Shown here in pieces: positions 486 through 62,022 of a stretch of DNA of 64,000 bases. The DNA lies in IMG/VR virus record IMGVR_UViG_3300028840_003067, positions 3,786-67,785 of that record; one strand, given 5' to 3'. Numbering within the stretch: the first letter of the stretch is position 1; each line of letters opens with the position of its first letter. The stretch is from a virus. Below the pieces are notes generated by a model. It was not told where the DNA came from. It ran no database searches and saw only the letters and a program-made list of their open reading frames with translations. The position numbers and the translations under genes are program-made.

Positions 486-529
486 TATCAAGGGGTTCGA
501 GGGTCGTCGTCGGTGGTACGGGGTTTGCA
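486..529 (+). promoter_or_regulatory. sigma-54 promoter with upstream IHF-like site
   Basis: TGGTACG-GGGT-TTGCA at 514-529; TATCAA-GGGG-TTC at 486-498; GGGAGG RBS and ATG 560 downstream. Confidence 0.7.
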
Positions 530-559
530 TTCTCTTCAGGTATGGGAGGCGCGACGAGC

Positions 560-718
560 ATGTGTGAACAGCAGTGTGGAAATTGTACGTGCGAGACACA
601 GAACGAACCTGAGCGATGGTTCGATACCGAGACACACACGGAGCATCAGAGCGCCCTGTGCGACCTGTGCCGGTTCGATGCAGTGCTCGGTGAGGAGTCC
701 CTGCGGTACGTCAACTAA
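560..718 (+). CDS. small Cys-rich (Zn-ribbon-like) protein
   Basis: GGGAGG RBS before ATG 560; CGNC and CDLC motifs. Confidence 0.55.
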   Translation: MCEQQCGNCTCETQNEPERWFDTETHTEHQSALCDLCRFDAVLGEESLRYVN

Positions 719-738
719 GACACGGAGGCAAGACGAAC

Positions 739-903
739 ATGCACGAAGAACAATGCGATTGGTGCCGTAAGGGAACGAGTCAGGTGATCAAGCGAATGAA
801 GCGCGTGTATATTGACGACGAGGGCGAATGGGAGCCGGAGTACGTCTGCTTCGCGTGCCTCGATGCTGATGCCCGTATGAGGTCGTACGATGCCCGATGG
901 TAA
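739..903 (+). CDS. small Zn-ribbon-like protein (not in ORF track)
   Basis: GGAGG RBS; MHEEQCDWC...VCFAC. Confidence 0.55.
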   Translation: MHEEQCDWCRKGTSQVIKRMKRVYIDDEGEWEPEYVCFACLDADARMRSYDARW

Positions 904-1084
904 TGAACTGACGCACGTGTGGCAAGCGTGCCTGTATACCAAAGGGCATGTGACTCCGATGTGCGGTCGGATCTTCCGGACGTACGAGGGGTACAAGCGG
1001 TTCGCGGAGTCGTTCCCTGAAGAATCGAAACGAGTGTTAGGTGTGGTCGCCATCACGTATCAATGTTTGCGTATTGAAGATTAG
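890..1084 (+). CDS. hypothetical protein
   Basis: ORF packed between co-oriented genes, GAGG upstream. Confidence 0.45.
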   Translation: MPDGNELTHVWQACLYTKGHVTPMCGRIFRTYEGYKRFAESFPEESKRVLGVVAITYQCLRIED

Positions 1085-1095
1085 GGGGTGAACCG

Positions 1096-1284
1096 ATGTC
1101 ACTATCTGAACCACGCATTGTTCGAATCGGCGAGACGCATTACGTGTGGCTGTGTGGATTTCATCGGGAGAGTTATACCGAGTGTGAGAGTTTCGCGGAG
1201 GCGGTGGCGCTCAAGCGGAGGATCCGGAGAGATCCGGCCTACGCGGAGCAGGGCATACATGGATTCGAGGCCGGTATAGCTTAG
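1096..1284 (+). CDS. hypothetical protein
   Basis: AGGGGG RBS; 62 aa; 3' end overlaps tRNA-Thr. Confidence 0.5.
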   Translation: MSLSEPRIVRIGETHYVWLCGFHRESYTECESFAEAVALKRRIRRDPAYAEQGIHGFEAGIA

Positions 1285-1345
1285 TGTTCAAAGCTCTCGC
1301 CTTGTAAGCGAGTGATCGGGGGTTGAAATCCCTCTACCGGCTCCA
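1270..1345 (+). tRNA. tRNA-Thr(UGU)
   Basis: Cloverleaf: acceptor GCCGGTA/TACCGGC, D stem GCTT/AAGC, anticodon stem CTCGC/GCGAG with loop CTTGTAA, T stem GGGGG/CCCTC, encoded CCA. Confidence 0.85.
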
Positions 1346-1360
1346 ATAATAGGTGTAACG

Positions 1361-1561
1361 ATGTTTAATCACTGTGTGGTCAAATTGACGGGGAAGACCA
1401 AGAAGGGGAAGGAACGCGTCAAGCAGTTCGGCACGCTCTGGACGATTGAGACGCGGGTCGATCCGACCGGACAAGGCCGATGGTGTGTCGTCTGTCCACC
1501 GAGTATGCGATGGGTCCATCCGACACACGATGCAGATTTCGATGTGGAGTTGCTACCGTAG
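1361..1561 (+). CDS. hypothetical protein
   Basis: AGGTG RBS, 66 aa. Confidence 0.6.
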   Translation: MFNHCVVKLTGKTKKGKERVKQFGTLWTIETRVDPTGQGRWCVVCPPSMRWVHPTHDADFDVELLP

Positions 1562-1811
1562 TGCACAGTTCTCACGAAAGGGGATGGAGATGCGAGCACG
1601 TGAATTGAAGGCGCACTTGAACACACTGGCGGAGGCAGAGCTAGATCGAGATGTCGTGATCGAGGGGTGTGATTGCTGCGGGGAGGCGTTGGACGTAAAG
1701 CTGGAAGACTGGCCGTGGAGAAAGGAGAGCGAGAAGAATCCGGAGGTTCTGTTTATCACACGCGATATGAGTCAATGGTAGTCAGTGTATATCTTAACCA
1801 CGAGGGAGGCG

Positions 1812-2321
1812 ATGATGGGCACGAAAGCGCAAATTGGATTTCACGAGACCTTGGCTGACCGACCGGTGGCCATTCTTACACAGCATAACGACGGGCATCC
1901 GACCGGTAAGTCCGGCGTGATGTCGGAGTTGATGGAAATTTGTCCGTCGTTGCTCAAGCGGTACGGGTTTTACGAACCGGCGTATCTTGCGGCTCGAACG
2001 CTCGTCATGCTCGCGTTGCGGTTGGATGAACGCAAAGAGGATCCTCACAATGTATGGGGCTACACGGTAGGCGCTGAGCTTCGTGATGCGACGCGGTTTT
2101 ACTACGCGGTGACGAAAGAGGGCGTACACGTGTACGACGCACGAGGGATGGTCGATGAGGATCTGGGGAAGTTGGAAGATATCGAGGAAATGTTTTTCAC
2201 GGCCTGGGTCAACGACGACGAGCGGCGTGAATTGGAGAAAGAAATCGCAACAACCGATGCGTCACTGAAGGCGATGAAGCTTCGCCTTGAAAGCCTCAAG
2301 CGGAATGGAGCGTTAGTCTAA
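1812..2321 (+). CDS. hypothetical phage protein
   Basis: GGGAGG RBS; MGTKAQIG...HNDGHP motif resembles the conserved 'MGTR...HxDGYP' early phage proteins; C-terminal coiled coil. Confidence 0.7.
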   Translation: MMGTKAQIGFHETLADRPVAILTQHNDGHPTGKSGVMSELMEICPSLLKRYGFYEPAYLAARTLVMLALRLDERKEDPHNVWGYTVGAELRDATRFYYAVTKEGVHVYDARGMVDEDLGKLEDIEEMFFTAWVNDDERRELEKEIATTDASLKAMKLRLESLKRNGALV

Positions 2322-2521
2322 TGCGTCGGTCGGATCCACGTCACTATACCTGGGGGGTGAAGATCCGGAGCATCGACAAAGTTCTGATGTATAACATGAC
2401 ACGAGAAGAGGCGGAGGCAGTCGCGGGACAGGTTGAGGGCCTGTCCGCGGTGCCGATCGACAAGAAACGCTGTTCACCGAATCGACGACAGCATGAAGAA
2501 GGGCATGGGATTCAGATATGA
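2321..2521 (+). CDS. hypothetical protein
   Basis: TAATG stop/start coupling with the upstream gene. Confidence 0.5.
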   Translation: MRRSDPRHYTWGVKIRSIDKVLMYNMTREEAEAVAGQVEGLSAVPIDKKRCSPNRRQHEEGHGIQI

Positions 2522-2754
2522 TGGGCATCGCGCTCAGTATCAATGATAAGCTGTTAGCATTTTACGAGGTCCGTCGTGTCGAGCCGGTGGATCGACTACC
2601 GGCACCGACGACCCTCTGTACGTACCGTGTCTTTGACGACGAGGGAAACGAGGCGTTGCCTGAACCGATTCAACATCGGTATGGATGGGGAGCGGAGTCA
2701 CTGGCGTATCGAGTCCTCGGAAAACTGAAGAGGGCGCATGGTCAGCGTTCGTGA
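2518..2754 (+). CDS. hypothetical protein
   Basis: ATGA coupling, 78 aa. Confidence 0.5.
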   Translation: MMGIALSINDKLLAFYEVRRVEPVDRLPAPTTLCTYRVFDDEGNEALPEPIQHRYGWGAESLAYRVLGKLKRAHGQRS

Positions 2755-2759
2755 AGCAG

Positions 2760-2775
2760 TGGCACATATGTTGCA
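2760..2775 (+). promoter_or_regulatory. sigma-54 -24/-12 element
   Basis: TGGCACA-TATG-TTGCA, near-consensus; upstream of gene 2877 and tRNA-Met. Confidence 0.6.
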
Positions 2776-2876
2776 GCTTTGTGATTATGTGACAGATGCC
2801 ACGACGCTGTCCGATATCACAGTGCTCAAACAGAAGGCGCAGCAGGTTCGCCGGTTGTTAACCGAGGGGGACGACA

Positions 2877-3068
2877 ATGGTGTACATGTGGACGGTCAAA
2901 ATTCTCAAGGAGACGGGCATACCGGACAGAGCACAATACAACGTCGCGGCACGAACAGCAAAAGAGGCAATTAACAAGGCGGTTCGACAGGCGCAGTGCG
3001 ATATCGGCTATAAGCGACCGTATGTCTGTGTGTTTCTCGAACGTAGCGATACGTTCGTGGTGGTGTAG
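2877..3068 (+). CDS. hypothetical protein
   Basis: GAGGGGG RBS; stop codon overlaps the tRNA 5' end. Confidence 0.55.
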   Translation: MVYMWTVKILKETGIPDRAQYNVAARTAKEAINKAVRQAQCDIGYKRPYVCVFLERSDTFVVV

Positions 3069-3141
3069 CGGGGTAGATCAAAGGTAGATTACCGGCCTCA
3101 TAAGTCGGATGGTGAAGGTTCAAGTCCTTCCCCCGCTACCA
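3067..3141 (+). tRNA. tRNA with CAU anticodon (Met, initiator-like)
   Basis: Acceptor AGCGGGG/CCCCGCT, D stem GATC/GATT, anticodon stem CCGGC/GTCGG with loop CTCATAA, T arm GAAGG-TTCAAGT-CCTTC, ACCA end. Confidence 0.9.
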
Positions 3142-3170
3142 TTTTCATGTCTGGGGTTGAGTGGCACTAA

Positions 3171-3329
3171 ATGAGATCCGAGCCGACATTCTGTCCGATG
3201 TGCCATCGGAGGGCGTTTGAATGGGAGGGAAATTTTGGATGGTGTATGCTGTGTAGTTATAGTTGCACGAGATCGGACGGCGACGATCTGTCGGACGATG
3301 AAACAGGTCCGGAGGCGGTCAACGTATGA
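3171..3329 (+). CDS. small Zn-ribbon protein with acidic tail (not in ORF track)
   Basis: MRSEPTFCPMC...WCMLC; ATGA coupling to the next gene. Confidence 0.45.
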   Translation: MRSEPTFCPMCHRRAFEWEGNFGWCMLCSYSCTRSDGDDLSDDETGPEAVNV

Positions 3330-3691
3330 TGCCGACCGCTGAGTACATTGCAGGTTTCTTCGACGGCGAAGGATTAGTCGGCCTTTACTATGCCAAGCGC
3401 GACTCGCGGTGGTGTCCGGAGGTCGCTATCACACAGAAGTCCGATAGTCGGACCATGTTATTGATGCGACGGATTGCCGAGAGGTATCATGCGAAAGTCA
3501 AGTACGTGAATGGTGGGTATCTCGCGCTCAGTATCCGACGGAAAGATCGTGTCAGAGAATTTATTCGTGATGTGTTGCCGTTCTGTACGGTGAAGCATAC
3601 ACAGTTACTCGTGCTCGATGCGTGGTTGGAGACCGGCACGTACTCATACCGTACGGCTCAATTGTTAAAGACCTTAAAACGGAGGGCATGA
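3326..3691 (+). CDS. single-motif LAGLIDADG homing endonuclease
   Basis: N-terminal YIAGFFDGEG motif, AITQK strand, LPF..VK near the C-terminus. Confidence 0.85.
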   Translation: MMPTAEYIAGFFDGEGLVGLYYAKRDSRWCPEVAITQKSDSRTMLLMRRIAERYHAKVKYVNGGYLALSIRRKDRVREFIRDVLPFCTVKHTQLLVLDAWLETGTYSYRTAQLLKTLKRRA

Positions 3692-3823
3692 TGCGTCAAG
3701 GTACGAGGGAGCAGTTTCAGACCTGGTTAGCAGGGCGTGGGTTGACGCTGACGAAGTACAATCAACTCACCCCAGAGGCGAAGCGAGCGATCTATCAACA
3801 ATATCAGAAGCGAGGCACGAAAG

Positions 3824-4255
3824 ATGAAACCTTGGATTCACGCGGAAAATAGTGCGAAAAAGTGGGGCGGAAGTCCTGAAGACTATCTGCATATCCATGA
3901 TTGGTTCGATCAAACGAAGGCGCACTTCCCCGATATGCGGCATCGCGCCATTCTACATTCGAGCTTCGGGATCTTCCTTTGCGAATCTCAGTTTGGTACG
4001 TTCATCACGAATGAGTCCGGCAAGGCGGTCCAGGTGCGAGACATTGCAGAGCACCACGTGATCGAAGACCTGGGTTTCATTCCGACGATACAGGATTATC
4101 TAAAAGACATGCCGTTCTACGCATGGCTTGGTGGTAGGCCGAAGGTGAAACGGAAGATCAAGATCGAGGATCTTGATGACGTGGTATTCGACGGAGGGCG
4201 ACCGGCACCCTTGCCTCCATCACAGCCATTTGATACGACGAAGATCGTCGATTAG
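3824..4255 (+). CDS. conserved phage protein (DUF6915-like)
   Basis: MKPWIHAENSAKKWGG..DYLHIHDWFD..HRAILHSSFG..AEHHVIEDLG signature. Confidence 0.75.
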   Translation: MKPWIHAENSAKKWGGSPEDYLHIHDWFDQTKAHFPDMRHRAILHSSFGIFLCESQFGTFITNESGKAVQVRDIAEHHVIEDLGFIPTIQDYLKDMPFYAWLGGRPKVKRKIKIEDLDDVVFDGGRPAPLPPSQPFDTTKIVD

Positions 4256-4264
4256 GGAGGGGAT

Positions 4265-4537
4265 ATGTGGAAGGCGAATGTTCACGCTCCGATGTTTCTC
4301 ATTCAAGAAATTGACTGGCAGTACAACGACGAAATTTTCTATCGCTCGGATAACGGGCAGGGAGGTATTCCGAAGGTCATCTATACGACACAAGACGCGG
4401 CATACGCTGAGTGCAAGCGGTTGAACGCGGAACAATTAAAGAGGAACCCTGACATGCCGTGTGGGTACGAGCATGACGGAACGTACCCGACCGTGAAAGA
4501 ATTTTACGAAGTGGTTGAAGTGGAACTTGGAGGGTAA
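4265..4537 (+). CDS. hypothetical protein
   Basis: GGAGG RBS; WQYNDE motif. Confidence 0.6.
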   Translation: MWKANVHAPMFLIQEIDWQYNDEIFYRSDNGQGGIPKVIYTTQDAAYAECKRLNAEQLKRNPDMPCGYEHDGTYPTVKEFYEVVEVELGG

Positions 4538-4538
4538 C

Positions 4539-4967
4539 ATGATACCGAACGAGATCACCGAGTTTTTGAGCAAGAAGAGAGAGTTAGACCAACACGTGCA
4601 AGCGATTGGGAAAAATTCACTGCGCGAATTGTTCAACACGTTGTTCGAGTCCGACGAGCAGATGACGAATATTCGATGGACACAATACACGCCACACTTC
4701 AATGACGGGGAGCCGTGTGTGTTTCGGATCAATACGATCACGGTTAAGATGGACGGGAACGATGAAGACGGGGACAATGCCGACGGGTACCTGGACGCCT
4801 ACGATCTGGGTCGTCTCGGTAAACCCGCGGTCGAGGCTGCGCTCGAATCGTTGCAAGCGACGGCCTCTGAACTTGAACATGTGTTTCAGACGGTGTTTGG
4901 GGACGATGCCGAAGTGACGGTTTGGAGGAATGGCGAAATCGAGGTTGATTGCGTCGAGCACGATTAA
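4539..4967 (+). CDS. conserved acidic phage protein
   Basis: GGAGG RBS; WTQYTPHFNDGEPCVF motif. Confidence 0.7.
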   Translation: MIPNEITEFLSKKRELDQHVQAIGKNSLRELFNTLFESDEQMTNIRWTQYTPHFNDGEPCVFRINTITVKMDGNDEDGDNADGYLDAYDLGRLGKPAVEAALESLQATASELEHVFQTVFGDDAEVTVWRNGEIEVDCVEHD

Positions 4968-4978
4968 AATACCTCACA

Positions 4979-5036
4979 TGTCTCGTTTTTCCCACAACGC
5001 TGTGTCCGGAATGGCACATGTGGGAAAAACGAGACA
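4979..5036. repeat. 18-bp perfect inverted repeat / long hairpin
   Basis: TGTCTCGTTTTTCCCACA (4979-4996) and TGTGGGAAAAACGAGACA (5019-5036). Confidence 0.9.
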
Positions 5037-5041
5037 CGTAA

Positions 5042-5083
5042 TATCAAGCACTTATACTTTTTAAGCGGGGCATCCCGTTTGCA
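5042..5083 (+). promoter_or_regulatory. IHF site plus sigma-54 promoter
   Basis: TATCAA-GCAC-TTA matches WATCAANNNNTTR (5042-5054); GGGCATC-CCGT-TTGCA at 5068-5083; intergenic, before GGAGG RBS and ATG 5129. Confidence 0.75.
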
Positions 5084-5128
5084 TTGTAGAATGGTATCAG
5101 TGACATTCACCAATCAAACGGAGGGTTT

Positions 5129-6019
5129 ATGAATACACCAAGAGTCCCGATGCAAAGTGTGTTGGCGTATCAAGAGCGGTATGGGATTGCGTCTCAGATG
5201 GACGCGTTGAAGTCCCTCGCGCCTTCAGTGTTTACAACCGATTCCTCGCCGAAGGTTTCGGCGAAGTATCAACACGTGAACACCATCGACATTATCAACC
5301 ATATGTTGCTGAAGGGCTGGAACTTGGATCAAGTCGGAGAGACACGCGTTACACAGAAGACCCGTGAACGTGGTCTTGCTCCGTACGTGCAGCACGCGGT
5401 CACGCTCCGGCATCCGGAGTTCAAATTGGGGAAACTCAAGAAAGATGATGTGACTCCGAACATCATGCTCGGTGGCTCACATAACACGTCGTCCGTCGTG
5501 TGGATGATGGGTGGCATCTATCGGTGTTGGTGTGACAATCAGGCCCTCGTATCCATCGGAGATTTATTCTATTCGAAACATCGTCACATCGGGAGCTTCC
5601 AGGTCTTGATGGATGGGATCTATCGGTCCTTGGACAACATGGTCGCGCAAGTGGATAAGATCGGGGAGCCGATCCAGAAGTGGCAGAGCCTCACCCTGAC
5701 GGTCGAGCAGCGGTACGAGTACTTCCGACGCGTGATCGAACTTCGTCCGGAGAGCAAAGCGAAGACATTGGCGAAAGAGAACTTCGAGTCGTTCGACTAT
5801 CGGAGACGCGGAGCGGATCTTTCCAATGATTTGTTCACGGTGTACCAGGTCGTGCAAGAGCATACGATGCGTGGTCTCCGTGTTCCGATCCTTGTCAATG
5901 GTCAGAGTGCGGAGCGTTCGCTGACGAGGCCGGTTTCCGGAGTCAATACGTTCGTCGATTTGAATCGGGCGCTGTGGTCGGTGACAGATCGGTTCGCGGA
6001 CGAATTGGTCAATGGCTAA
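5129..6019 (+). CDS. DUF932/DUF945-family protein
   Basis: APSVF..SAKYQHVNT, GGIYRCWCDNQ, RR..D..NDLFTVYQVVQE..LNRALW motifs. Confidence 0.8.
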   Translation: MNTPRVPMQSVLAYQERYGIASQMDALKSLAPSVFTTDSSPKVSAKYQHVNTIDIINHMLLKGWNLDQVGETRVTQKTRERGLAPYVQHAVTLRHPEFKLGKLKKDDVTPNIMLGGSHNTSSVVWMMGGIYRCWCDNQALVSIGDLFYSKHRHIGSFQVLMDGIYRSLDNMVAQVDKIGEPIQKWQSLTLTVEQRYEYFRRVIELRPESKAKTLAKENFESFDYRRRGADLSNDLFTVYQVVQEHTMRGLRVPILVNGQSAERSLTRPVSGVNTFVDLNRALWSVTDRFADELVNG

Positions 6020-6225
6020 GCGCGAACGATCAAAGGCGGGAGAGGAGAACGATGTGGGCTCCTCTCCCACGGGGAGGTCTTGCTATGTCTGTGGCAAGCC
6101 GATCAAGAGAAACGATCTAGGTTTCTTCCCCGTCTCGCACATAATGTGCAAACCAGGCACGAGCAAGTGGCTCGCATGGTTCGACGAACTTCCGGCATCG
6201 AAGCAGACGGAATGTGGAAGGCTGA

Positions 6226-6825
6226 TTGCCGATCATGCACGAATTAAGTTGGTGGAGACACGTAAACGATTCGAGGAGTGGCGAAAACGAAAGGCGGACG
6301 AACGTGAACGCATTTACGACGGCCCTGTTGGAGAAGGCAGCGGAAGAGGAAGCGGGGATCTATCGCCCGTACTACCAAGGTCTGCGCGGTCTCGAAGTCG
6401 AGTATCGAAAGGTCTTCGAAAATCAACTCGCGCTGTTTCAAGACAACGAAGAGCCTCTTGAATACGCGCTTGCCAATTTAATGTACTCGGCTCATACAGC
6501 ACACTATTATCCCCTTGCGCCACCCTTTTGTCGGAAGGATATGTTACAGGCGGCACAGGCGGTGCTCAGTGTTCCGACCGGTCATGCGTGCCTGGTCTCG
6601 TTGATTGTGACAAATTTTCCGCAGGCGATGTTTTCCGCGGAGTACCTGTACTTCAAAAATCGGACGGCACTTCGATTCTTCGATCTGCCGGAAAAGGAGA
6701 GGCCCCCCGTCCTTCACGGCCACGACAAGAAGGATTGGGCAATTCCCTCGGAGCGGGTCGAGGCACTCCGTGATCTAGCACTTGAGATTTGGCAGAAGGA
6801 GCAATCGAGTGATTCTGAAGCATGA
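6226..6825 (+). CDS. hypothetical protein (start uncertain; overlaps ORF 6012-6461)
   Basis: 199-aa ORF with protein-like composition. Confidence 0.55.
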   Translation: MPIMHELSWWRHVNDSRSGENERRTNVNAFTTALLEKAAEEEAGIYRPYYQGLRGLEVEYRKVFENQLALFQDNEEPLEYALANLMYSAHTAHYYPLAPPFCRKDMLQAAQAVLSVPTGHACLVSLIVTNFPQAMFSAEYLYFKNRTALRFFDLPEKERPPVLHGHDKKDWAIPSERVEALRDLALEIWQKEQSSDSEA

Positions 6826-7123
6826 ACCAAAGGGCGATCCGCGGGGTCTTGCCGTATGGCGAACCGACTTGTCGTGGTTTGAGGGAGGGAAGTTCATCCC
6901 GATTACGGTGATCATCCAGTACGCGTATCCGAACATGGAAGTGATCGACGTGGATATCGATTGTCCGCGGAGCGTGTTAGAGTCAAGCGGGTTTCGAATC
7001 GAATCGGTCCTAGCAGCAACGGCATTAGAGGAGTTTACTAAACAACGGGAGACGTTACGACGTGAGCACAATAAGTCAAAAAAGAACGAGCCGGTTAACC
7101 GGATTGACCCCATGTTTCATTGA
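6782..7123 (+). CDS. hypothetical protein
   Basis: ORF in the co-oriented array. Confidence 0.5.
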   Translation: MRFGRRSNRVILKHEPKGDPRGLAVWRTDLSWFEGGKFIPITVIIQYAYPNMEVIDVDIDCPRSVLESSGFRIESVLAATALEEFTKQRETLRREHNKSKKNEPVNRIDPMFH

Positions 7124-7296
7124 TTGGCACAAGTACGCGTCCGTTACAAACCTGCTGGATCAGTACTCGCTCTCTCGAACCATGCACGATACCGTGGAGC
7201 AGCTTCGTATCGCGGACGTACTGGTCGAAGCTGTCATTCCGGAGTTACTCGAAAAGGCAAAGCAGTTCGATCAAATTGTGAATGAAGACGAGAAAC

Positions 7297-7863
7297 ATGT
7301 CTGAACGATTTGTAAAACGAGTTTACACGAACGAGACGTATGCGGATCGAGGCAATCGGTACGCGCTCGGTGCGCTGATTGCGGAGACGGTCGCGGCGTA
7401 TTATTGGGTCGATGCGTTCATCGAACGACGGAAGAGGCCGCGGACGTTCTGTGTGATCGGACAACGTGGTCTCGCTGAATACGCGGCAAAGAAAATCGAT
7501 GCGGTCCTTCGGTTAATCGAGCGATCCGCGGCACAGAACAACGAGACAATCGGTTGGCAGTTTGGAGCCGCGGTCTCACTCCGCAACACGCTACACGAGA
7601 AACGAGAATCGGAACGCAAAGATCCACGATACCATGAACAGATGGCGGCATCCGTGTTTCGCGCAAGGCGAGAACTGAATCACTCGTATAAGGTCGGGCA
7701 GTCTCAAGCCAAGGCGACGTTCGATATCGACGGATACAATCGAGGCAAGGCGGTGCCGTGGTCGGAGACAAGTTTTCAATCCCCGATTCAAGTGTTGGAT
7801 CGGTTTGCGTATACCCTCAACAATCCGGAGGAGATCAATGTACACGAAGGCGCACGTCCTTAA
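7297..7863 (+). CDS. hypothetical protein
   Basis: 188-aa ORF overlapping both neighbours. Confidence 0.55.
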   Translation: MSERFVKRVYTNETYADRGNRYALGALIAETVAAYYWVDAFIERRKRPRTFCVIGQRGLAEYAAKKIDAVLRLIERSAAQNNETIGWQFGAAVSLRNTLHEKRESERKDPRYHEQMAASVFRARRELNHSYKVGQSQAKATFDIDGYNRGKAVPWSETSFQSPIQVLDRFAYTLNNPEEINVHEGARP

Positions 7864-8608
7864 CGGACAAGGCCATGTGGCCTTAGTCGGATTCCTGGGA
7901 GGCGATAAGTCGATTGTCGATGCCGCACGCGTCTCGTACGCGCAGGATTCGATCGGTGACGAGCGAATCCTAAATGCGAAAGACGAGAAGCTGATCGAGT
8001 ACTTGATGAAGAACCGGCACACGTCTCCGTTTGAATCCGTGGTGTGTTCATTCGAAGTCGAGGCTCCGATCTTTGTGTTTCGGCAATGGCACCGTCATCG
8101 AACGTGGAGCTACAACGAAATTTCCGCACGCTACACCGAGCTACCGGAAAAGTTTTACGTGCCGTCCCCCTCGGATATCGGGGTACAGCATTCGAGCAAC
8201 AAACAGATGCGTCATGAGGTTGTCCTGACCGATGAAGAATATGCGAAGCGCGAGACGGAGATTACGAACTACACGACACAATGCCGTGATGCGTACGCAG
8301 CCTATGAGGAGCTAATCAAGGCGGGATGGCCTCGTGAATTAGCACGCGCAGTGCTCCCCGTCTCAATATTCTCTCGCATGGTCGGGACAGTGAACCTGCA
8401 TAACCTGTTTCACTTCCTTCGGCTGAGGCTCCACGTGCACGCGCAGGCCGAGATCCGAGAATATGCGGAGCAGATGGTCAACCTGATTCTACCCCACGTC
8501 CCGTATGCAGGTAGGGCCTTTATCCGGACGCTACAAATGGAGCCGACAGAATTTCCCTTAGCAAAGGTTGATTTAGCCATAAAAGGTGACTCATGCACCG
8601 AAATTTGA
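7838..8608 (+). CDS. thyX: FAD-dependent thymidylate synthase
   Basis: HTSPFE, RHRTWSYNEISARY signature, ELARAVLP, HAQAEIR. Confidence 0.97.
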   Translation: MYTKAHVLNGQGHVALVGFLGGDKSIVDAARVSYAQDSIGDERILNAKDEKLIEYLMKNRHTSPFESVVCSFEVEAPIFVFRQWHRHRTWSYNEISARYTELPEKFYVPSPSDIGVQHSSNKQMRHEVVLTDEEYAKRETEITNYTTQCRDAYAAYEELIKAGWPRELARAVLPVSIFSRMVGTVNLHNLFHFLRLRLHVHAQAEIREYAEQMVNLILPHVPYAGRAFIRTLQMEPTEFPLAKVDLAIKGDSCTEI

Positions 8609-8943
8609 AATTATGCGGGTTGGCACTGGTCTTGCTTACGGTAACGTGTCAGGGGCCAGAACCGAGTTATGCGGACGACCCCTTACATGTCCCACTTGAC
8701 TCTGTGCCGGTCGATGGGTACGATAAGAACCTTTGTAACGATAGATGGAATACATGTACAGATTATGACAGACAACAATTCGATACCAGATACCCAGGAA
8801 CCCCTCTTGAAGAAATCTCGCGTTACCCGCTCAAAGAAGACTCACGACGTGAGTACTCAGGAGCGGAAGAACGGTCGTTTCAATCGTACGGCTCAAGCGT
8901 GGAAAGAAGTACCCTTGGGCTTCAAGATGGGGAAAGATGGTAA
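8593..8943 (+). CDS. putative exported protein
   Basis: N-terminal hydrophobic signal-like segment; AAGGTG RBS; 3' half overlaps the next ORF. Confidence 0.4.
   Translation: MHRNLKLCGLALVLLTVTCQGPEPSYADDPLHVPLDSVPVDGYDKNLCNDRWNTCTDYDRQQFDTRYPGTPLEEISRYPLKEDSRREYSGAEERSFQSYGSSVERSTLGLQDGERW
8621..8636 (+). promoter_or_regulatory. sigma-54 -24/-12 element
   Basis: TGGCACT-GGTC-TTGCT, upstream of the replication gene block. Confidence 0.55.
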
Positions 8944-20471: not shown

Positions 20472-22430
20472 ATGAGCATTTTATCAGATGAATTTGTGCG
20501 CTCGTTTCCAGTGAAGTTCGAAACATTCATGGGGGAGTTCACCTACTGGCGGACCTACTCGCGTAATCTGTGGGATGAAGGCCGAAAAGAGCAGTGGCCG
20601 GAGACAGCCGCCCGTGTAATCAACGGCACGTTCGACTTGCTTCGGGTTCATTGCATCACGAATAATCGCAAATGGGACAATGCACGAGCCGAACGGACAG
20701 CGCAGGAAATGTTTGTCCGGATGGTGACGTTTAAGTTCACACCCCCTGGTCGTGGGTTGTACGCAATGGGATCGGAAGCGGTCGAAGCTCACGGAGGAGC
20801 CGTCCTGAACAACTGTGCGTTTGTCTCGTCACGAAATCTGAGTTCACAGGTGTTTACGAATCTGATGAACCTGACCATGCTTGGAGTCGGCGTGGGGTAC
20901 GACACACTCGGTGCGGGACAGATGGTGCTTTCGAAACCGCAGCCATACGAGGCACGAGTCGTGATCGACGACACCCGTGAAGGGTGGGTACATTCGTTGG
21001 AAGTGTTACTTGACTCGTATTTCGTGTCTTCACCGAATCCGACCGTGGTGTTTGACTACGGTAAGATCAGGCCAAAAGGACAGCCGATCAAACGGTTTGG
21101 TGGGATCAGCAGCGGACCAGAGCCCTTGATCCGAATGCACAAGAGTCTTCGGATGCTGTGTGACCAGTACGTCCATAAGCGGGTTGACTCGACCTTCATC
21201 GTCGATGCCGCGAATCTCGTGGGACGGTGCGTCGTGTCGGGGAACGTGCGACGGTCGGCACAGATTGCGCTTGGCTTGGAAGGGGACAAAGAATTTCTGC
21301 ATTTGAAAGACGATGCGGAACTCGTACGGGACCGTCGAGGATTTTCCAACAACTCTATTCGCGCCCACGTCGGGATGGACTATCGGGAAGCTGCCGCGCA
21401 CACGGCACTGAATGGTGAGCCTGGGTACCTCTGGCTCGATAATGCACGTATGTTTGGCCGGATGAATGGACAAATTTCAACACGGACGGACTTCCTCGCA
21501 ATGGGGACTAATCCTTGTTCCGAACAAACATTGGAGGATGGGGAGCTATGTTGCCTCGTAGAAACGTATCCGGCGAAGCACGAGACGTTGGACGATTACT
21601 TGAAGACCCTCAAGCTCGCCTATCTCTATGCCAAGACGGTGACGCTCATCAAGACCGGCATCCCAGAGACGGACAGTATTATTGCTCGGAACCGGAGAAT
21701 TGGGTGCAGCATGTCCGGAGTCGTGCAGGCCATCCAGAAACACGGCGCAACCGAATTTATTCGATGGTGCAATCGTGGATACGACTTCCTCACCGGCTTG
21801 GACGCCAGTTACTCCGATTGGTTACAGGTACCGGAAAGCATCAAGCGAACGAGTGTGAAGCCGTCAGGGACCGTCTCAATTCTCGCCAACGCGACACCTG
21901 GCATTCACTATCCGCACGCCGAGCACTACATACGGAGGATCCGGTTCGCCAGCAATTCACCGATCATCCCCCGCTTGGAGCAGGCGAAGTACAAGATTCT
22001 ACCGGACATTTACGGGCAGGAACAGGGGAAAGAGAATACGTTGGTGTGCGAATTTCCGATTAAGGAGCCCTACTTTTCGAAAGGGAAGGCGCACGTATCG
22101 ATGTGGGAGCAACTGGCATTGGCCGCGGCCATGCAGCGGTATTGGGCCGACAATCAGGTGAGTATTACGGTGCACTTCACGAAGGACGAGGCCAAGGATA
22201 TCCCCCTCGCCTTGGAAATTTACCAACATCAATTGAAGTCGGTGAGTTTTCTCCCCTACGATCCGCACCAAGCCTATGAGCTTGCTCCGTACGAAGAAAT
22301 CACGGCCTCGGAGTACGCAGCAATGGCATCAAAGTTGCGTAAGGTGGAGGTACCATACGACAGACTCGATACCGAGGCAAGTCCGCCACGGGGTTGTGAT
22401 TCTGATGTGTGTGAAATAAAGGGAGTGTAG
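20472..22430 (+). CDS. nrdJ: class II (B12-dependent) ribonucleotide reductase, monomeric RTPR type
   Basis: FTPPGRGL, NNCAF, TNPCSEQTL..CCLVE, TSVKPSGTVS, C-terminal GCDSDVCEI. Confidence 0.95.
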   Translation: MSILSDEFVRSFPVKFETFMGEFTYWRTYSRNLWDEGRKEQWPETAARVINGTFDLLRVHCITNNRKWDNARAERTAQEMFVRMVTFKFTPPGRGLYAMGSEAVEAHGGAVLNNCAFVSSRNLSSQVFTNLMNLTMLGVGVGYDTLGAGQMVLSKPQPYEARVVIDDTREGWVHSLEVLLDSYFVSSPNPTVVFDYGKIRPKGQPIKRFGGISSGPEPLIRMHKSLRMLCDQYVHKRVDSTFIVDAANLVGRCVVSGNVRRSAQIALGLEGDKEFLHLKDDAELVRDRRGFSNNSIRAHVGMDYREAAAHTALNGEPGYLWLDNARMFGRMNGQISTRTDFLAMGTNPCSEQTLEDGELCCLVETYPAKHETLDDYLKTLKLAYLYAKTVTLIKTGIPETDSIIARNRRIGCSMSGVVQAIQKHGATEFIRWCNRGYDFLTGLDASYSDWLQVPESIKRTSVKPSGTVSILANATPGIHYPHAEHYIRRIRFASNSPIIPRLEQAKYKILPDIYGQEQGKENTLVCEFPIKEPYFSKGKAHVSMWEQLALAAAMQRYWADNQVSITVHFTKDEAKDIPLALEIYQHQLKSVSFLPYDPHQAYELAPYEEITASEYAAMASKLRKVEVPYDRLDTEASPPRGCDSDVCEIKGV

Positions 22431-61364: not shown

Positions 61365-61503
61365 ACGTTTGTAGACGTTTAAGTATATAATTTACCTAGA
61401 AGTGCTTATATTTCGCGGGGTTATGAGCCTGAACGGTTTTTTTCTGTGTATATTCCAGCAGGCCAGCGCATATACCGAGGCCCCCGAAAAAATTTTCCGG
61501 ACC

Positions 61504-61621
61504 TGGCACCGGTTTTGCATTAGCACGTTTCGTGCCGCGTGCCTCGTGTCTTACGTAGTTCTACGTATGTCCTACGTAGTTATACGTGTGGCACGTTTCT
61601 TGCTAAGGCACCGATATTGCA
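61504..61621. promoter_or_regulatory. cluster of four sigma-54 -24/-12 elements
   Basis: + TGGCACC-GGTT-TTGCA (61504), - CGGCACG-AAAC-GTGCT (61537-61522), + TGGCACG-TTTC-TTGCT (61589), + AGGCACC-GATA-TTGCA (61606). Confidence 0.75.
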
Positions 61622-61682
61622 TAGCGCGAAGCACGAAACACCCCACCCGAATAACCCCTAGTGGAGACTACGTAGGGCGAAC

Positions 61683-61863
61683 TACGTATCTCGTCTTTCC
61701 CTACTGAAAACTACGTAGAGCGGCTTTCCCTACTGAAAACTACGTAGCGCGGCTTTCCCTACTGAAAACTACGTAGAGAAAAAACCCCTAGGGAAAACTA
61801 CGTAGAGAAAAAACCCTTCAGAAAAAATACGTAGAGGAAAAACACGTAAGGAAAACTACGTAG
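61683..61863. repeat. 29-bp-period iteron-like array with TACGTA core
   Basis: TACGTA at 61683, 61712, 61741, 61770, 61799, 61828, 61857; three near-identical CTTTCCCTACTGAAAACTACGTAG units. Confidence 0.9.
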
Positions 61864-62022
61864 AGGGAAAATACGTAGGTAGAATTTCGTGTCTCGTGTT
61901 TCCGTAGGGAAAACTACTTAGTCGGAATTTTGTGGGGGAAATACGTAGGTAGTACTACGTAGGGCCGATCACAAGGTATAGTGTACATTCTTGCACACTC
62001 GCCCCCATATATACGTACAAAA

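Follow-up and report, generated by a model that had tools for sequence, protein, structure and literature searches.

Genome organization and location of the motif

An uncultured phage, represented by IMG/VR virus record IMGVR_UViG_3300028840_003067 (67,785 bp; G000), carries a series of -24/-12 elements that resemble sigma-54 (RpoN) promoters, the one bacterial promoter class that stays locked until an ATPase opens it. The window analyzed here, a stretch of 64,000 bp, covers bases 3786-67785 of the record. Positions with the prefix w are window positions, those with the prefix G000: refer to the whole record, and G001, G002 and G003 are related IMG/VR records. The G000 record is rated 100% complete by CheckV. 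Its final 100 bases are repeated near the beginning, at position 45. The ends therefore overlap by about 145 bp, which points to a circular or terminally redundant assembly. G000 is a complete tailed phage of roughly 67.6 kb.

The genes form two blocks, divided by a 1-kb non-coding region (w61096-62096). The + strand block runs from about w62100, through the record ends, to about w26900. It contains many small open reading frames (ORFs), two tRNAs, a DUF932 protein and ThyX, in addition to an SNF2 helicase, an AEP primase, a UvrD helicase, PolA, a class II ribonucleotide reductase, a dCMP deaminase and a thymidylate kinase. The - strand block (w27400-61095) holds the structural genes, the last ones being portal, TerL and a probable TerS. 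According to codon-usage gene calls, 8.9% of the genome is intergenic.

Enrichment, spacing and strand of the motif

A sequence-only reading of this DNA had placed -24/-12 elements at w514, w2760, w5068, w8621 and near 61.5 kb. All are present on the + strand, the last group at w61504, w61589 and w61606 (Table 1). Compared with shuffled sequence (100 shuffles for the consensus classes), the exact consensus TGGCAC-N5-TTGCW was found 4 times in the window vs 0.04 expected, and matches with up to 1 mismatch numbered 6 vs 1.52; neither count was reached in any shuffle (0/100 in both cases). The enrichment does not extend to the class with up to 2 mismatches, which is at chance level (32 vs 26.15 expected, 13/100 shuffles reaching 32). 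The w5068 site, which has two mismatches, is therefore not above chance from sequence alone, and is rescued because the site and its flanks are kept at the equivalent place in G002. A crude weighted score, whose weights were not taken from a published matrix, gave 5 top matches in G000 vs 0.07 in 30 dinucleotide shuffles, 5 vs 0.23 in G002 and 2 vs 0.10 in G003.

The geometry of the motif is strict. The whole G000 record has 5 exact copies, all on the + strand and within the + strand gene block. When the spacer of TGGCAC...TTGC was varied, 5 copies were found with spacer 5 and 0 with spacers 4 or 6. Nine of the 10 listed sites fall outside gene calls (binomial P ~3e-9 for a genome that is 8.9% intergenic). 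The proposed strand and intergenic bias was thus borne out, and placement upstream of genes holds except at w8621, which in G000 lies inside a signal-peptide ORF (w8593-8943). Among ~27 sites in the four phages, GG and GC are invariant, C/T is allowed at two positions and the N5 spacer is strict, a variation profile such as would be expected of sigma-54 promoters. It agrees with the sigma-54 consensus given in PMC12316311. Sigma-70-type consensus sites are not enriched (9 vs 8.9 and 1 vs 4.2 expected), and the gaps between late genes on the - strand contain hairpins without the -24/-12 motif.

Conservation in related phages

Searches of IMG/VR with TerL and PolA detected three relatives: G002 (64 kb), which is colinear with G000 and has 62-77% nucleotide identity in conserved genes, G003 (52.6 kb) and G001 (a 14.4-kb fragment). 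The same motif is present in all three, as the expectation of conservation in related phages required. With up to 1 mismatch, G002 has 10 forward and 1 reverse matches vs 1 and 2 for a backwards control pattern, and G001 has 3 vs 0. G003, which is without the early region, has 4 vs 5 overall, yet one of its sites is exact. In four distant phages linked only by a PolA homologue, the motif is at background, with 3-5 matches each vs 2-4 for the backwards control.

Two positions are shared between the phages. The site after thyX is common to G000 (w8621), G002 (13710) and G003 (3946). The ORF w8593-8943 is conserved, and its signal-peptide part encloses the motif in G000 and G003 in the same codon phase; coding constraint may be part of what maintains the w8621 site. 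In G002 the post-thyX motif lies upstream of the ATG of the w8593-8943 homologue, outside that ORF, which argues against pure coding constraint. The second shared site, ahead of the DUF932 gene, is common to G000 and G002, and in G002 it reads GGGCATCTGGTTTGCA. Alignment of this gap between G000 and G002, otherwise diverged, shows three kept blocks: TATCAAGCACTTA, GGGCATC..GTTTGCA and GTATC at the predicted start.

These results bear on whether the motif arose by chance or through effects of composition and codon use on the coding strand. The chance-level class with up to 2 mismatches, the readability of the w8621 motif as Leu/Ala signal-peptide codons and the frequency of simple tandem repeats that bear the motif (74/89 bacterial triple-site matches, see below) would fit such an origin. 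We nevertheless regard it as extremely improbable, since the exact and one-mismatch classes are far above shuffles and the sites are intergenic, on one strand and kept in relatives at the nucleotide identity given above.

Setting of the individual sites

The features of the window are listed in Table 1. A fifth exact consensus lies outside it, at G000:980 (+). The gene that opens the main early block, preceded by an AAGGAGG ribosome site, has its ATG 27 nt past this copy. At w514, the predicted start G at w540 is followed by a GGGAGG ribosome site and the ATG at w560. The distance to an ATG with a good ribosome site is 27-45 nt at G000:980, w514 and w5068. Starts computed from the motif position are w540, w2786, w5094, w8647 and w61632. 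In ten single sites, information is high only in the GGCAC and TTGC cores, and GTAT stands at nt 11-14 past the motif in at least 6/10, as at w5094-5097, the predicted start of the w5068 site. The w2760 site would fall within an alternative 78-aa ORF (w2738-2974), which was not chosen by codon-usage scoring. The weak candidate at w22324 is matched in position by G002:26907, an agreement that may be explained by protein-coding conservation.

Table 1. Promoter-like sites and accompanying elements in the window (w positions)
Feature	Position	Strand	Remarks
IHF-like element TATCAAGGGGTTC	486..498	+	One mismatch to WATCAA-N4-TTR; 27 nt 5' of w514 site; lead only
-24/-12 site TGGTACGGGGTTTGCA	514..529	+	1 mismatch to TGGCAC-N5-TTGCW; 155-bp gap before ORF w560-718
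Exact consensus TGGCACATATGTTGCA	2760..2775	+	6 nt past stop of ORF w2518-2754, 101 nt before ORF w2877-3068
Exact IHF-type consensus TATCAAGCACTTA	5042..5054	+	13 nt 5' of w5068 site; kept in G002
-24/-12 site GGGCATCCCGTTTGCA	5068..5083	+	2 mismatches; 161-bp gap before DUF932 gene (w5129-6019)
Exact consensus TGGCACTGGTCTTGCT	8621..8636	+	13 nt past thyX stop; within signal-peptide codons of ORF w8593-8943
Weak candidate TGGCATCAAAGTTGCG	22324..22339	+	2 mismatches; inside 3' end of class II ribonucleotide reductase gene
A/T palindrome GAAAAAATTTTCC	61486..61498	.	Directly 5' of first control-region site; like element in G001, G002, G003
Exact consensus TGGCACCGGTTTTGCA	61504..61519	+	First rightward site of three; between terS (-) and first + ORFs, in the 1-kb non-coding region
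Leftward candidate CGGCACGAAACGTGCT	61522..61537	-	2 mismatches; face to face with 61504 site; ~427 nt upstream of terS
Tandem pair TGGCACGTTTCTTGCT-A-AGGCACCGATATTGCA	61589..61621	+	17-bp phasing; 61589 exact, 61606 one mismatch
Array of ~six 29-bp repeats, ACTACGTAG core	61680..61878	.	3' of the three rightward sites, before first + ORF

Candidate regulatory elements were found around some of these sites. The window contains 10 copies of the word CGAGACAC vs 3.85 expected (0/100 shuffles reached 10), at w457, 592, 628, 5030 and others, and also at G000:734, 835 and 1876. Several copies precede sigma-54-like sites by 38-60 nt, and in G001 and G002 sites are flanked by related ACACGAR words. 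This word is a candidate regulator or enhancer site. No upstream palindrome common to all sites was found. An IHF-type box is present ~17-26 nt upstream of the GG at w5068, G002:10185 and G002:849. For the IHF consensus itself, the window shows no enrichment (2 vs 1.81 expected).

Two other observations concern these intervals. An inverted repeat with 21-bp arms (ACATGTCTCGTTTTTCCCACA ... TGTGGGAAAAACGAGACACGT) occupies w4977-5040, directly 5' of the w5068 site, with no T tract behind it; it could terminate transcription of the operon ahead of it or serve as a protein-binding dyad. Downstream of thyX, w8593-9331 contains two ORFs in different frames that overlap by ~180 nt and are both kept in G002. 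One encodes a small secreted protein (signal peptide, then a YADDP...YPLK core) and the other starts at about w8763 (MTDNNS...).

Control region beside the terminase genes

Motif clusters adjoin terS/terL in non-coding DNA of all four records and are directed away from the terminase genes. In G000, one rightward site is followed by the 17-bp-phased pair, and the first + strand ORFs begin ~475 nt downstream of the cluster. The tandem two-site unit is also present in G001, which has two such 17-bp-phased pairs, and longer arrays are found in G002, with approximately nine copies at 16-17-bp phasing and two leftward copies back to back with them. In G003, where the contig end truncates the region, a single rightward copy faces a single leftward one, like G000 61504/61522. 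Leftward sites similar to w61522 are G002:63717, G002:63743 and G003:52484. The array at w61680-61878 probably represents replication-origin iterons or a regulator-binding array. A like repeat set, of ACTACGTA repeats, exists in G001; none was found in the control region of G002 (CTACGTAG count 0).

Alternatively, the motif might be recognized by a DNA-binding protein of the phage (a repressor, an activator, a protein of the origin or of packaging, or a specificity factor too diverged for recognition), and its likeness to the sigma-54 consensus would then be coincidental. Direct-repeat arrays of 16-17 bp and inverted pairs are typical of operators and iterons, and the arrays adjoin both the terminase genes and the iteron array. 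Furthermore, the phage has no activator gene, small conserved zinc-ribbon-like early ORFs lie behind the arrays in G000 and G001, and most early ORFs are without a family. There is also some look-elsewhere effect, the motif having been chosen for its sigma-54 likeness among many scanned windows. However, all 10-11 specified positions and the exact spacer agree with the sigma-54 consensus, and the single sites hold a fixed geometry to ribosome sites and ATGs. Together with the distribution of arrays described next, this makes a dedicated phage protein an unlikely explanation in our view.

Arrays in other viral and bacterial sequences

IMG/VR was scanned for two sites within 30 bp, with N5 spacing and with N6 spacing as a control, and at least 120 loci were obtained for each. 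Raw match totals are not evidence, and only the comparison within two 120-locus samples is used. Among the loci sampled, those with 5 or more sites of differing spacers made up 28/120 for N5 and 0/120 for N6, and those with 3 or more sites 96/120 and 31/120, respectively. One 147-kb contig has 21 strict sites and the same TTGCTAAGGCAC junction as G000. A 10.5-kb contig (L129) contains five regions ~0.7-1 kb apart, each composed of an A-rich tract and a promoter-like tandem sigma-54-consensus pair followed by two CTGCCATTTTGGCAG palindromes; an ORF near these arrays has a weak Sigma70_r2 match (E 3e-4). L129 has the appearance of a family of regulated promoters in an unrelated phage. One other gene-content group, characterized by a T4-type TerL and an SU10-like portal, accounts for half of the sampled loci with at least 4 distinct-spacer sites (25/50). 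In L062, a member of this group, the array lies directly upstream of those genes and is directed away from them. Sigma54_activat was searched in five array-bearing IMG/VR records and not found.

The variable-spacer arrays occur in viral contigs in which no genes shared with G000 are detectable, such as the SU10-like portal group and the 147-kb contig, so that a single phage protein family is insufficient as an explanation. The absence of N6-spacer arrays from the loci sampled also argues against a coincidental likeness.

In bacterial genomes, a triple-site scan gave 89 matches, 74 of which have at most 2 distinct spacers and are simple or coding repeats. All matches titled actinomycete or Bifidobacterium fall within those 74 (80 of the 89 titles are listed), and because the 74 are simple repeats the taxonomic spread of raw matches is uninformative. 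No proteins shared with G000 were found at the 89 loci. Sigma54_DBD is present in 4/5 bacterial genomes with clear variable-spacer arrays, and 4/14 of the named control genomes were over the cut-off. This is consistent with sigma-54, on a small number of genomes.

Search for an activator, a sigma factor and a polymerase

The sequence-only reading had seen no activator gene in the window, and this holds for the whole genome. Six-frame hidden Markov model searches of G000-G003 with Sigma54_activat (PF00158), a model that was positive in all 14 control genomes, gave no match at E<=10, and no GAFTGA-like peptide exists in the six frames of G000. Six-frame searches with Sigma70_r2 and Sigma54_DBD were also negative in the four records (E<=1). 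The phage RNA polymerase reported as missing was not found here either: T7-type RNA polymerase (PF00940) gave no match in G000-G003, in a search that was positive in no control genome. A Pfam scan of 65 ORFs named only 17 families, leaving most early ORFs without one, and no sigma factor, polymerase, HU/IHF or activator was among them. Very diverged factors would escape these searches. Within their reach, the phage has neither a cognate AAA+ enhancer-binding protein with upstream binding sites nor transcription machinery of its own.

The missing activator and the crowding of the control region together raise a further alternative, in which the sigma-54 holoenzyme (E-sigma54) does bind, the clusters act mainly as a sink or roadblock and only some single sites fire. 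A sink would soak up host E-sigma54 and blunt sigma-54-dependent stress responses; a roadblock would shield the divergent early and late units from each other. E-sigma54 forms closed complexes that are stable in the absence of activator, and overlapping tandem and face-to-face sites cannot all fire. Regulatory roles of sigma-54 binding outside promoters have reportedly been studied in Salmonella, in work cited in PMC12316311. On the other hand, single sites stand in promoter geometry before genes and are kept there, and the leftward and rightward sites of G002 are back to back like ordinary divergent promoters. We consider this alternative quite improbable.

Affinities and other features of the genome

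G000 DNA was matched in two metagenome DNA runs, labeled sediment and seawater, from which the record may derive, with no RNA run among the matches. In megablast, 20 kb of G000 gave no match to GenBank phages. Searches with portal, PolA and TerL (tblastn) detected only distant isolates of mixed hosts, with at most 46% identity among the matches listed, the closest isolated phages listed for TerL being likewise at <=46%. Among 185,579 bacterial species genomes scanned with a TerL profile, none yielded a relative. The host phylum suggested by TerL Atlas neighbors ('commonest Pseudomonadota') was too weak for use. PHROGs annotated, among ten ORFs at w22495-26929, only the dCMP deaminase, the thymidylate kinase and a weak helicase match, and sequence searches of three early proteins against PDB gave nothing at E<0.4.

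Rfam detected two tRNAs and nothing else. A tRNA-Thr (TGT) is located at w1270-1345. The + strand interval w3067-3691 contains a tRNA-Met (CAT), then a small ORF, then a weak LAGLIDADG homing-endonuclease match (PF00961, E 0.0012), most likely ORF w3326-3691. A 13-bp tandem repeat (CTAGAGCCCGATG, 14.5 copies) at w63731-63923, together with the first ~70 bases of the record, adjoins the overlapping ends and may be linked to packaging or genome termini. The low-GC module at w62000-63650 (43% vs ~53%) contains small ORFs, among them the zinc-ribbon-like ORF kept in G001, and encodes a GP88-family protein (PF17338, E 1.8e-41). GP88 homologues occur in at least 8 other array-bearing IMG/VR loci (L148, L150, L121, L112, L057, L079, L094 and L103).

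Comparison with known systems

Sigma-54-dependent development was reportedly described for the Pseudomonas aeruginosa phage YuA (Yuavirus) by Ceyssens et al. (2008, J Bacteriol 190:1429). PMC5053324 calls phage use of sigma-54 'rare' but 'not unprecedented' and presents YuA development as strictly dependent on host sigma-54, and in PMC10914365 one sigma-54-like YuA promoter was mapped by ONT-cappable-seq. The earlier statement that sigma-54 sites are known from few phages fits these sources, in which YuA is the one cited case. Full-text literature searches found no sigma-54 promoters for phage early genes, nor arrays of them, beyond the YuA work. Like G000, YuA is a lytic-type tailed phage of ~60 kb with no RNA polymerase of its own, no annotated enhancer-binding protein and promoters of the -24/-12 type. 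However, the three active '-24/-12 consensus' promoter fragments annotated in its GenBank record (NC_010116) are in the structural (late) region, whereas those of G000 precede early and middle genes and form clusters in the control region. Moreover, the canonical consensus is not enriched in bases 1-50000 of the 58.7-kb YuA genome (15 vs 18.4 when 2 mismatches are allowed, none when only 1 is), so that the annotated promoters must be poor matches, while G000 has five exact copies. In the passages cited here, no tandem arrays are described for YuA. YuA is absent from the best 25 of 830 portal, 15 of 2301 PolA and 15 of 304 TerL matches, a statement about match lists and not a direct protein comparison, which was not made; the PolA tally includes 94 Pseudomonas phage records beyond the rows listed.

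The G000 sites were also compared with other arrangements. Like the canonical sigma-54 promoters pspA, glnHp2, nifH and Pu, which have an upstream activator site and an IHF bend, they have the TGGCAC-N5-TTGCW core with invariant GG and GC, and in three cases an IHF-type box (w5068, G002:10185, G002:849). They differ in having no nearby cognate activator gene or clear shared upstream activator palindrome, in the stacking of several sites at 16-17-bp intervals, and in the conservation of GTAT in the start region, which to our knowledge is not a known sigma-54 feature. The strong early promoters A1-A3 of T7, clustered at the leading genome end, are similar in that several same-direction promoters head early genes beside packaging genes and the genome end, but these are sigma-70 promoters that fire without activator, while the G000 sites are of a type locked until an ATPase acts. 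Finally, phage and plasmid iteron and operator arrays share the phased direct repeats and inverted pairs in a non-coding control region. In G000, however, the repeated word is the consensus of a host sigma factor and also occurs singly in promoter position before genes.

Proposed function of the sites

The claim that the early and middle genes are wired to sigma-54 promoters stands in so far as the motif is non-random, strand-specific, conserved and unaccompanied by a recognizable enhancer-binding protein; from the sequence we infer the sigma-54 dependence of the G000 sites. On balance, we think it probable that the motifs are real RpoN-holoenzyme promoters from which the rightward early and middle genes are transcribed, and that they would be opened either by an enhancer-binding protein of the host or by an unrecognized phage factor. 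Host E-sigma54 would form closed complexes at these sites, and transcription would start ~11 nt past the motif, where GTAT is conserved. Opening would be achieved by an ATP-driven host activator, or by a phage factor of a kind not yet recognized. The cluster beside the terminase genes may be a bank of early promoters heading the rightward genes, which would fire through the iteron array, probably the origin.

Several points weigh against this promoter reading. We know of no sigma-54 promoter that works in the absence of an AAA+ activator, a kind of protein that the phage does not encode. Were these promoters the first to be used upon injection, the host would have to supply an activator that is already active, which is an unusual dependency. 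At 16-17-bp phasing, the tandem sites cannot all hold holoenzyme at once. The tandem arrays and face-to-face pairs complicate a pure promoter reading, and the pairs (G000 61504/61522, G003) look more operator-like than promoter-like; such stacking is unlike ordinary promoters and is the main support for the rival explanations. To these points are added the chance-level class with up to 2 mismatches, the crude weighted score with weights from no published matrix, the unenriched IHF consensus, the possible coding constraint at w8621 and the one of five array-bearing bacterial bins without Sigma54_DBD.

A wider proposal, which we hold to be speculative and unlikely, is that one phage lineage, or possibly several unrelated ones, runs its immediate-early program from banks of sigma-54 promoters without an activator of their own, opened by a novel phage protein or by a host activator that infection triggers. 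In the first version, a small phage protein, possibly injected with the DNA, would unlock E-sigma54 in a way unlike any known enhancer-binding protein. In the second, infection would switch on a host activator of the PspF or RtcR kind, which respond to membrane or RNA damage, and the alarm of the cell would become the start signal of the phage.

Significance

With its early genes behind locks of the sigma-54 kind, a phage must read the physiological state of its host through a host activator, or carry a new key. YuA, the only cited precedent, has weak consensus matches in its late region, whereas those of the G000 lineage are consensus-grade, conserved and easily tested in vitro. To judge from the spacing-controlled IMG/VR sample, other uncultured phages also have banks of such sites. 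If this is confirmed, phage use of sigma-54 would be commoner than the literature implies. These sites would also offer a compact and portable test bed for activator-independent or infection-triggered opening of E-sigma54.

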